A stretch of DNA of 64,000 bases, taken from NCBI RefSeq assembly GCF_002854065.1, contig NZ_CP024152.1; one strand, written 5' to 3'. Made by a program: the position numbers. Origin of the DNA: Escherichia coli. Its GTDB lineage: Bacteria > Pseudomonadota > Gammaproteobacteria > Enterobacterales > Enterobacteriaceae. This document shows positions 45,001 to 48,000 of the stretch, piece by piece. Within the stretch, counting starts at the first letter, position 1. Each line of letters opens with the position of its first letter.

Positions 45001-48000
45001 CTGATAATAATGTTCCAGAATTAATATCTGCAGGCTATGTTAAGTTGTCCCCACACACAATCTACCTGTTTTCTCGTGTGTGCCACAGGCGCAATACATA
45101 AATAGTCTGGCCAGTAAGTTCGTAACGGATTTCGTACTCGCCAGCAAAAATCCGTCTGACCTCCCTGGGTTCAAACTGAAATAACTGTTCCCCCATACGT
45201 GGATGAGTTAACAGAATGACCGGAGCCTGTGTCAGGGACTGCACCGTTCTGGCGGCCGCAGGTTTACTGGCCAGCACCAGAAAATCATATAACCGCGCCA
45301 AATCAGAAAGCGCCTTACTGGTCCACTTCAGTTCCATCAGCGTGGCACCGGTAACGGATTGTCAGTACTGAGGCTGTCCGCCCAGGCCTGTACAGCCTGA
45401 TGGTCGATAACCTGTCCGGATGTCACATCGTCCAGGGCTTCCAGCGTCAGGCGATTACGCTCCTCCTCCTGGGCAAGCCATGCAGAAAGCGCCTGTTTGA
45501 TAATCCAGCCCCGGGAGCGTTCCAGTCTGGCGGCCATCTGGTCGACTTTATCAGCCATAGGTAATGGCACATGCGCGGTAATTACTTTTGTTGCCTGTGC
45601 GGTATTGTTTTTCATTTGCATATCCGATTAGCTGTTAATCATATTTAATCATAGTGATTACTTTCAGACGAAACAAGGCAAATAATGCGCGTCAGCGCAT
45701 GTAAGGCGGCACTCCGTTGTTACATATGGCACAGAAACAAAACCGCCGAAGCCCGGCGTCAGCCGGTACTGATTGATAGATTTCACCTTACCCATCCCCA
45801 TCCTGCTAAGCCATACCCGCTTTCAGCCATGAAATAGCTTCTGTGCGCGGTCGGAGTGGTCCCGACAAGGGTTTACCCGCAGTCGGGGCGTATCTCCGCG
45901 TTAGCGGGCCGTCAGGGCCGCTTACGAGCGTGTACTGAGGACTTCCAGCCAGAAGACTGGCAGCGATGACAATGTAGTTACAACATTCATAATTAAAAGC
46001 GATGTTGTTCCCGCCCTTCGGGCGGGGGCGGCTTCGCTTTTCAGTTATGAGGGGTGGGCGCGGTGCTGCGTTTGTGTGGTGTTTTTTATTCCTGATGTTT
46101 TCGCGGTGGTTTCAGAACGGTGAGGTTCGGGGCCCGCGCGTTAGCGTGGGAGGTGCTTTTAGATTCTGAGCGGCGAGGCCTTGGCCGCTGCAAGCGAAGG
46201 CCTCTTTGTATTTGTTCACAGTGGTTTCAGAGATAAAGACTTTCCCTGCGGCGAAGCAACGCAGGGGATTAAATAATGGGGTTAGGACTATATTGCAGGT
46301 TTGCTGTTTCAGGTTTGCAGCTTTTTAAAGTTCTTTGTTTGCGGATTTATGTGGATAACTGAAACAACGTGGCCATGTTCTGATGACTGATACGTGGTTT
46401 TATGGGCAGATATGCCCCTCTGAGGGGATTTAAGGTGATTACTGCAGATTTTGGGCTGAGCGGAATCAGCGCCGAAAGCCCCGGAGGGGCTGGCGATGAT
46501 TCAGTGCTGAAGGAATGGTGCTGTCTAGTGCGGCGGTGGCGCAGCCAGCGTCAGTTCAAGCTGACGCAACTCCCTGATGGCCAGTCGCTTCAGATGGTCA
46601 TCGGAACAAAAATAGGCTTCATCCGGCGGCAGACGCTTCCTGAGATACTCTGCCATCTCATGAATCTGCTGGTCGGCAGGCAGTTTCTTCAGACGTCTGG
46701 CGCGCTTACTGGCTGCCGCTTTTGCACGACGGTGTTTCAGTGCATCCTGGCTGCGCTGCAGATACCAGCGTTTTCTGGCCGCATGTACGGAGATATCTTC
46801 ATCCTCACGCAGTACGCCTTCCCGGATGAGTTGCTGGCGGATTTCACTTTCACGCAACCGCTTCTGCTGCTGTTCGTGAAGTTTCACCATGTCGACGCCC
46901 AGCATCTGCCAGCCTGCCGGTGTTATCCAGACGTAACGTGGCAGACGCTGGCGGGTTTCACGGTCCCACAGGGTTTCCTCTGAAACACCCAGCACACCAA
47001 AACGTACCTGTTCGGCCAGCAAACGGGAAAGGCGGGAGACCGTCACTTCCAGTTCCGGAATAACCTTCCCCTTGCTGTCTTTCGGGCTGATTTCTCTGGC
47101 CAGACGGGAAACACTCATGCCTACGGTATGTGTGCCCGCATCACTGAAGCTGACCAGAACCGGCCAGACGGCATCGAGGAGGCGTTGTTTTTCCGGACGG
47201 AAAGCATATTTGCGACCGGCATACGTTCGTTTCTGCACGTAAAAAGGATGCAGAGACATGTGCATGCGCAGGCTCTGCTCGCCGGTCACCGGGTCCTTTT
47301 TCACCAGACGGTTGTAGGCGTGCCCGAGCTGCCCGCTCAGCGCCTTATAGCGCTCAGGACGATACCAGGACGGATTTTCGCATTTGGGTTTGGTGGAGTG
47401 CTCACCACGACGACGCTTCGTGCGCTTCCTTTCCGGTTCAACCAGGAAAGTGGTCGCCCTTCCCGCTTCATAGTCTTCCCAGAAACGGATCTGCTCTTCG
47501 GGTGCTAACTGACACCAGTGTACTGCGTTATATGGAGTATTCTTCAGACCTGCCACAAGCTGTCGCTTATGGCGGAGCGATTGTGCCGTGTATTTATACA
47601 CTGCACAGGGTTGAATCTCTGGTACGGTTTCATTATACTTTACCCGTATTCTGTGAGGCCCCCACTATCTTTCGTCGTTCCGCCAAGTTCGTAAGAAAGA
47701 TAGTGGGGGTTTTCCTTTTATGGCTTCCGGAACATCTTCAGTCTTCTGACTTACTGCCCGTACATGCCATCTCTCCTGAATGCCTTATGGCGCATTCTGC
47801 CGTCCGACTTTCGCCGCTTTGCTCCACAGAGTGCCACCCTCTGCACAGCTAATAACAGCCGAAATATACCCGCTTTACGTTAATTTGAAAAGCATTACAA
47901 CGATCTCTTCTCTTCCAGTGCCTCCTCACTGATACCTCTAATAAGTTAATCTTGACCTGCGTCAAAAAAATAAAATCTATTTTTAAAAGCAGATTTTTCT

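Follow-up and report, generated by a model that had tools for sequence, protein, structure and literature searches.

The repY-repZ-Inc arrangement was established by experiment in the 1990s, and its UUGGCG loop motif is named in the title of an article by Asano et al. from 1998. In ColIb-P9, translation of rep starts at a GUG codon which lies hidden in secondary structure and becomes accessible through a GGCG/CGCC pseudoknot (Asano 2014, PMC4705826). A weak Shine-Dalgarno (SD) sequence, the stop codon of the leader peptide and kissing by the antisense Inc RNA are also described for this plasmid, and in the published mechanism opening of the hairpin is followed by pseudoknot-dependent reinitiation, while Inc kisses the loop and then blocks repY (Asano 2014, PMC4705826). 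Induction of as much as 3000-fold is reported for ColIb-P9, and GUG-to-AUG mutants loosen the control (Asano 2014, PMC4705826). Inc is reported in the literature as an RNA of ~70 nt, and the RNA-binding protein FopA is described as binding Inc and as accelerating the formation of the Inc-repZ duplex about sevenfold in vitro.

Two further systems resemble the locus studied here. The repC-repB-repA leader of IncL/M plasmids (pOXA-48-type; RF01089, PK-repBA) also encodes a leader peptide, has a GTG rep start which is overlapped by the leader stop, and carries an antisense RNA target loop that forms a pseudoknot with a site directly before the SD. It differs in that the leader has 16 codons, the overlap is 4 nt and the pseudoknot is GGCCGG/CCGGCC. 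PK-repBA reaches 41.0 bits in the window (the whole 64,000-nt stretch of Escherichia coli DNA analyzed), below the gathering score of 45, which places our locus as related to this family and outside it. The CopA-tap-repA system of IncFII plasmids (R1/R100) likewise has a leader-directed antisense RNA, a short leader peptide with translational coupling to the initiator, and a RepA of the related family NF040977; it differs in lacking an activator pseudoknot and in having the extra repressor CopB. A CopA-like match (RF00042) at 47624..47717 on the plus strand scores 38.2 bits, below the gathering score of 60. Inc is the same kind of RNA as CopA, outside the curated RF00042 family.

Compared with these systems, our locus is almost certainly a ColIb-P9-type (IncI1-alpha) repY/repZ/Inc replication control module, which sets copy number via translation of RepZ. 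It shares with ColIb-P9 and R64 the same repY, GUG start, 13-nt overlap, UUGGCG loop, CGCC, hairpin III, and Inc promoter and terminator. The arrangement is already known as a textbook IncI1 module, and nothing found here alters the known biology.

Elements of the replication control region

The repZ leader matches the Rfam family PK-repZ (RF01087) over the full model (1-150) at 47717..47569 on the minus strand, with 194.5 bits (gathering score 44) and an E-value of 5.5e-46. An alignment of 47960..47480 (481 nt) took in R64 (NC_005014), ColIb-P9 (NC_002122) and R621a (NC_015965), and showed that 47544..47717 is identical in ColIb-P9 and R64. Only two differences from these plasmids occur in the 481 nt, at 47807 and 47514, and both lie beyond this segment. 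Because of the high RF01087 score and the identity to ColIb-P9/R64, we regard the region as a true PK-repZ and not a chance match. The original prediction, made from the sequence without database searches, that a repY-repZ-Inc control region is recognizable here thus holds, with all elements of the repZ leader on the minus strand as it had placed them. In addition, a 2-kb query around the repZ leader was matched with 100% identity by NZ_LN890525.1, a conjugative plasmid of 84,987 bp from Salmonella Weltevreden, and a 381-nt query matched 2,822 plasmid records, 974 of these with at least 99% identity. The elements, coordinates, predicted structures, conservation and covariation described below were obtained from sequence, and the mechanism is taken from the literature.

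Table 1. Features of the repY-repZ-Inc region and of the fopA homologue (positions in the window).
Feature	Position	Strand	Basis or remark
yafB/fopA homologue, ProQ/FinO-domain RNA-binding protein	43065..43667	+	Pfam PF04352, 48 bits
repZ CDS	46525..47556	-	GTG start, 343 aa; RefSeq start in NZ_LN890525.1 maps to 47556
repY leader peptide ORF	47544..47633	-	29 codons + TGA; ATG 47633, TGA 47546-47544
Structure III, predicted inhibitory hairpin	47544..47580	-	dG -18.9 kcal/mol
Weak SD of repZ, UAAGCGA	47563..47569	-	directly 3' of CGCC; within CCGCCATAAGCGACAGCTTGTGGC
5'-CGCC-3', 3' pseudoknot partner	47571..47574	-	repY codons 20-21; role per Asano 2014, PMC4705826
Inc RNA promoter-like site TTGAAT-17-TATACT	47611..47639	+	9/12 consensus matches; overlaps repY start on the opposite strand
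Predicted antisense Inc RNA, ~70-75 nt	47646..47720	+	stem + U-run terminator; putative 5' end
Structure I of repZ mRNA, Inc RNA target stem-loop	47659..47709	-	MFE folds; 15+ bp stem
Loop hexanucleotide 5'-UUGGCG-3'	47681..47686	-	GGCG 47684..47681 = 5' pseudoknot partner and Inc kissing site
Candidate repZ mRNA promoter TTTTCA-17-TATATT	47863..47891	-	conserved in R64 and ColIb-P9

The repY ORF translates to MKPYQRFNPVQCINTRHNRSAISDSLWQV, and this exact 29-aa sequence is found in public databases as 'positive regulator for repZ translation' or RepY, in agreement with the 29-codon repY that had been recovered by hand translation. RepY has no match to a Pfam or NCBIfam family. The number of codons and the position of the stop are unchanged in 10 of 10 I-complex leaders. 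The stop is located 13 nt past the repZ GTG, giving an overlap of repY and repZ at 47556..47544. A hairpin is also predicted within repY at 47582..47607 on the minus strand (dG -12.1 kcal/mol), and this hairpin includes the GTG at 47601.

Structure I folds in all 12 related leaders, and RNAalifold kept 18 pairs in it, 10 of which show compensatory double changes. A stem-loop carrying GGCG in the mRNA sense had been expected, and GGCG is indeed found in the loop of this structure. The complementary CGCC had been assigned to the 3' end of repY; this part has to be revised, as the motif precedes the repY stop by 24 nt and the repZ GTG by 15 nt, and is located just before the repZ SD. Each motif occurs once within 47540..47720 on the minus strand, and the extended complementarity UGGCGG/CCGCCA has a predicted energy of about -9.9 kcal/mol. 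Both motifs are invariant within the I-complex leaders, as conservation of the pseudoknot partners would require. The partners covary between this locus (UUGGCGG/CCGCCA) and IncL/M (UUGGCCGG/CCGGCCAA), a signal which comes solely from the distant IncL/M leader, the invariance within the I-complex being uninformative for covariation. With partners that are single-copy, conserved and covarying in IncL/M, a GGCG/CGCC pseudoknot is predicted at this locus.

In the predicted structure III, 47575-47565 would pair with 47560-47549, and 47580-47578 with 47546-47544. The model thereby has CGCC and the UAAGC of the SD paired with the GUG, and the repY stop paired with 47580..47578. This predicted hairpin agrees with the inhibitory structure described in the legend to Fig. 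1B of the 2014 review (Asano 2014, PMC4705826).

On the plus strand, folding of 47646..47720 gives a stem of 19 bp with UUUUCCUUUU behind it (dG -32.9 kcal/mol, z -6.4). The terminator was not listed by a simple terminator scan, as the stem-loop presumably lies beyond the stem and loop limits of the scan, but it is apparent from folding. Together with the promoter-like site, the stem and U-run point to an Inc RNA with its own promoter and terminator, as had been proposed. We infer the 5' end of Inc, and only some of the nucleotide numbers from FopA structure probing fit this placement. The promoter and 5' end of the repZ mRNA are likewise inferred, from a candidate promoter sequence. Negative copy-number control and incompatibility would be exerted by Inc on this plasmid as in ColIb-P9, given the identity between the two and the published experiments.

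Start codon of RepZ

Two GTG codons in the repZ frame are candidates for the start, at 47601 (358 aa) and at 47556 (343 aa). The original prediction favored the latter, and attributed to an ORF track an ATG start at 47601. The base read at this position shows GTG, and the minus strand within 47440..47640 has no ATG besides that of repY at 47633 and one at 47471 which is out of frame.

The choice of GTG 47556, with 343 aa and a 13-nt overlap with repY, is supported by RefSeq starts, by the literature on ColIb-P9 (Asano 2014, PMC4705826) and by all leaders compared, and this is the probable N-terminus of RepZ on this plasmid. In NZ_LN890525.1 the RefSeq initiator starts at the base equal to 47556, and in R64, ColIb-P9 and R621a the annotated start is the aligned GTG, all annotated starts in public records being predictions. 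The R64-based annotation of pESBL (RepY 36448-36537, RepZ 36525-37556) likewise gives an overlap of 13 nt.

We compared 13 leaders, 10 from the I-complex (IncI1, I-gamma, K1, K2/Z) together with those of IncL/M, pC240_3 and a Yersinia plasmid. The IncL/M leaders were obtained by a search with the Rfam PK-repBA consensus. One hit considered as an IncL/M plasmid (H78) was rejected, being IncFII(K) with a copB/tap-type leader, and repA was not found within positions 1-3000 of the pOXA-48 record. A GTG is present at the annotated rep start in 13 of 13 leaders, and in all of them the leader ORF ends 4-13 nt past this start. The block CCGCCATAAGCGACAGCTTGTGGC, which contains the repZ SD, is invariant in the I-complex leaders. 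Furthermore, in the IncK2/Z plasmids this leader continues directly behind the GTG into a different, unrelated IncFII-type RepA.

Upstream of GTG 47556, four of the 10 I-complex leaders read GTG TAT TAA at the equivalent of 47601, and the in-frame TAA at -39 closes the upstream extension. Read in the repY frame, the substitutions behind this stop are silent (ATA to ATT, AAT to AAC), and repY stays at 29 codons. In the IncL/M, pC240_3 and Yersinia leaders, the GTG start is preceded by an in-frame TAA at a distance of 15-42 nt.

In the other 6 of the 10 I-complex leaders, the repZ frame stays open as far back as GTG 47601. A minor additional RepZ isoform of 358 aa might be made in the IncI1/I-gamma/K1 subgroup, in which this frame is open. 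Such an isoform would escape the pseudoknot switch and could provide initiator at a low basal level which Inc does not affect. The in-frame stop of related leaders and the predicted hairpin around 47601 argue against it, and we consider it very unlikely.

It is hardly credible that RepZ as such begins at GTG 47601, with the first 15 codons overlapping repY in another frame. This start gives the mechanical longest ORF, NCBI and UniRef list the exact 358-aa sequence as 'replication initiation protein', the base equivalent to 47601 is the exact point of linearization of many complete plasmid records, and the open frame in six leaders would allow it. However, even in the leaders with TAA as the third codon, the GTG downstream of it and the flanks of this GTG do not vary, and the more distant leaders also carry a stop before their GTG start. 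The substitutions between 47601 and 47556 are synonymous in the repY frame and not in the repZ frame, and 47601 lies within a predicted hairpin. Moreover, both the RefSeq and the R64-based annotations start at 47556, and the literature describes a structure-masked GUG beside the leader stop codon (Asano 2014, PMC4705826). A start at 47601, which was the outcome that would have spoken against the original prediction, is closed by a stop codon in relatives, and GTG 47556 is retained as the start of RepZ.

The hybrid replicon and neighboring elements

RepZ matches the NCBIfam family NF040977 (RepA_IncFII_LM) with 316.3 bits over residues 58-335 (cut-off 70), and scores 22.7 against Pfam IncFII_repA, just under the cut-off of 22.9. 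As the family profiles begin at residue 58 of RepZ, they are silent on the N-terminus. The RepZ body is 94.8% identical to that of R64/ColIb-P9 and 98.8% identical to that of R621a (IncI-gamma). Since 18 of the 343 residues differ from ColIb-P9, the copy number could differ quantitatively.

R621a and IncK1 (pCT) have the same repY, CGCC, SD, GTG and overlap as our locus, with RepZ 98.5-98.8% identical. In R621a, the difference is found in structure I, the Inc RNA body, where seven aligned columns differ (six substitutions and one 1-nt indel). Incompatibility specificity is expected to depend on this part. Judged by sequence, the replicon is therefore a hybrid of an IncI1-alpha Inc determinant and an I-gamma-like initiator. 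This also explains the MOB-suite type 'IncI-gamma/K1' given to NZ_LN890525.1, as the RepZ body is I-gamma-like and the Inc determinant IncI1-alpha. We considered whether this label means that the control region is not of the IncI1 type, and rejected this reading because the leader sequence is that of IncI1-alpha and the resemblance to I-gamma is confined to the RepZ body.

Plasmids that combine several replicons and carry I-type rep genes exist, but that the region is an inactive IncI1 remnant on a plasmid maintained by another replicon is extremely improbable, as we found no support for it, no element is damaged or deviates from the functional sequence of ColIb-P9, the full-length RepZ strongly matches NF040977, and the identical 84,987-bp plasmid (NZ_LN890525.1) is typed with a single I-type replicon.

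The protein encoded at 43065..43667 shares 99% identity with the ProQ/FinO protein that adjoins yagA in ColIb-P9, the position given for FopA/YafB. By homology to FopA, this product may act as an accessory factor for Inc-repZ pairing.

A separate RNA element was observed upstream of traA. A complete match to the phage P1/P7 C4 antisense RNA (RF01695, 77.5 bits) is located at 48570..48657 on the plus strand, in the region named Hft by Yamaichi et al. Two elements exposed in this C4-like RNA have complementary, paired targets on the same strand, both upstream and downstream. The downstream b2 target GTCATCGGA (48691..48699) overlaps the GGAG SD sequence of traA (ATG 48710). Mutations in Hft lead to overexpression of TraA and "superspreader" transfer, and a role for a small RNA was left open by the authors (Yamaichi et al.). 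Full-text literature searches did not find a paper linking a C4 RNA to the Hft region. The C4-like module is more interesting than the repZ leader.

Proposed control of RepZ synthesis and its implications

By sequence identity, the published ColIb-P9 mechanism can be placed on this locus. Translation of RepZ would start at GUG 47556 with a weak SD, both of which would be buried in hairpin III (47580..47544). A ribosome translating repY (47633..47544) and pausing at the UGA 13 nt past this GUG would melt hairpin III and expose CGCC (47574..47571). CGCC could then pair with the loop GGCG (47684..47681) of stem-loop I, forming a pseudoknot that holds the start site open. With the weak SD and the GUG open, the terminating ribosome would reinitiate at the repZ GUG.

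The ~70-nt Inc RNA, probably transcribed on the plus strand from the promoter at 47611..47639 and ending at about 47720, would kiss the same loop and compete with the pseudoknot. Subsequently, Inc would block the ribosome-binding site of repY. RepZ synthesis is therefore expected to fall as the copy number rises.

The longest-ORF start at 47601 (358 aa) is wrong and nevertheless common in public records, which is an annotation problem and not a biological one. The problem is real, since both the 343-aa and the 358-aa forms of RepZ are present in public databases and many records are linearized at the base equivalent to 47601. Both the copy number of IncI1 plasmids and their incompatibility are set by this module, and these plasmids are major carriers of ESBL and AmpC resistance genes. 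Correct annotation of the repZ region is therefore of practical value.

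Composition of the replicon

Comparison with reference plasmids indicates that the replicon is a hybrid, in which an IncI1-alpha leader and Inc RNA are joined to an IncI-gamma-like RepZ. The IncI1-alpha plasmids R64 and ColIb-P9 have an identical leader and Inc RNA, whereas stem-loop I, the target of Inc RNA in the repZ mRNA, differs here at 7 aligned columns from that of the IncI-gamma plasmid R621a. RepZ, however, shares 98.8% identity with the R621a protein and only 94.8% with that of R64. This pairing of an IncI1-alpha leader with a RepZ closest to R621a explains why the identical plasmid NZ_LN890525.1 has the rep-based MOB-suite type 'IncI-gamma/K1'.

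Features flanking repZ

A complete C4 antisense RNA module of the phage P1/P7 type is located between the repZ leader and traA. The C4-like RNA matches Rfam RF01695 with 77.5 bits, compared to a gathering score of 45, and the same strand carries repeated targets complementary to both of its exposed elements. Of these, b2, which lies downstream of the RNA, overlaps the traA Shine-Dalgarno sequence. This region corresponds to the 'Hft' region of pESBL, where point mutations and insertions derepress TraA and increase transfer ~20-fold (Yamaichi et al.). Full-text searches of the literature found no link between C4 RNA and the Hft region.

The window also encodes a homologue of FopA, an RNA-binding protein published as a partner of Inc RNA. 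Two small ORFs share one base (45337), at the place downstream of repZ that yacA/yacB occupy in ColIb-P9. In the identical plasmid, one is annotated as a ribbon-helix-helix antitoxin and the other as a RelE/ParE toxin.

Coordinates of features around the replicon
Feature	Position	Strand	Remark
Hybrid replicon	46525..47960	-
C4 module	48431..48720	+
C4-like RNA	48570..48657	+
a1 target	48469-48475	+	complementary to C4-like RNA element
b1 target	48484-48490	+	complementary to C4-like RNA element
a2 target	48662-48668	+	complementary to C4-like RNA element
b2 target	48691-48699	+	complementary to C4-like RNA element
traA start codon (ATG)	48710	+
yafB/fopA homologue (ProQ/FinO domain)	43065..43667	+	99% identity to ColIb-P9 protein
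Small ORFs (94 aa, 91 aa)	45062..45621	-	neighbouring

RepZ start annotation and leader exchange

Public annotation of the RepZ start is inconsistent. RepZ is deposited in public databases in both exact forms, i.e., with 358 aa (GTG 47601) and 343 aa (GTG 47556). The base equivalent to 47601 is the linearisation point of many complete plasmid records, and others are linearised at the true RepZ start or at the repY ATG.

In IncK2/Z plasmids (L009, L010, L014/L015), an IncFII-family RepA is fused to an I-complex repY/pseudoknot leader directly after the GTG, and RepZ-like initiators are joined to IncFII-type copB/copA/tap leaders in other plasmids (L011, L012, L013). Leaders and initiators are modules that recombine.
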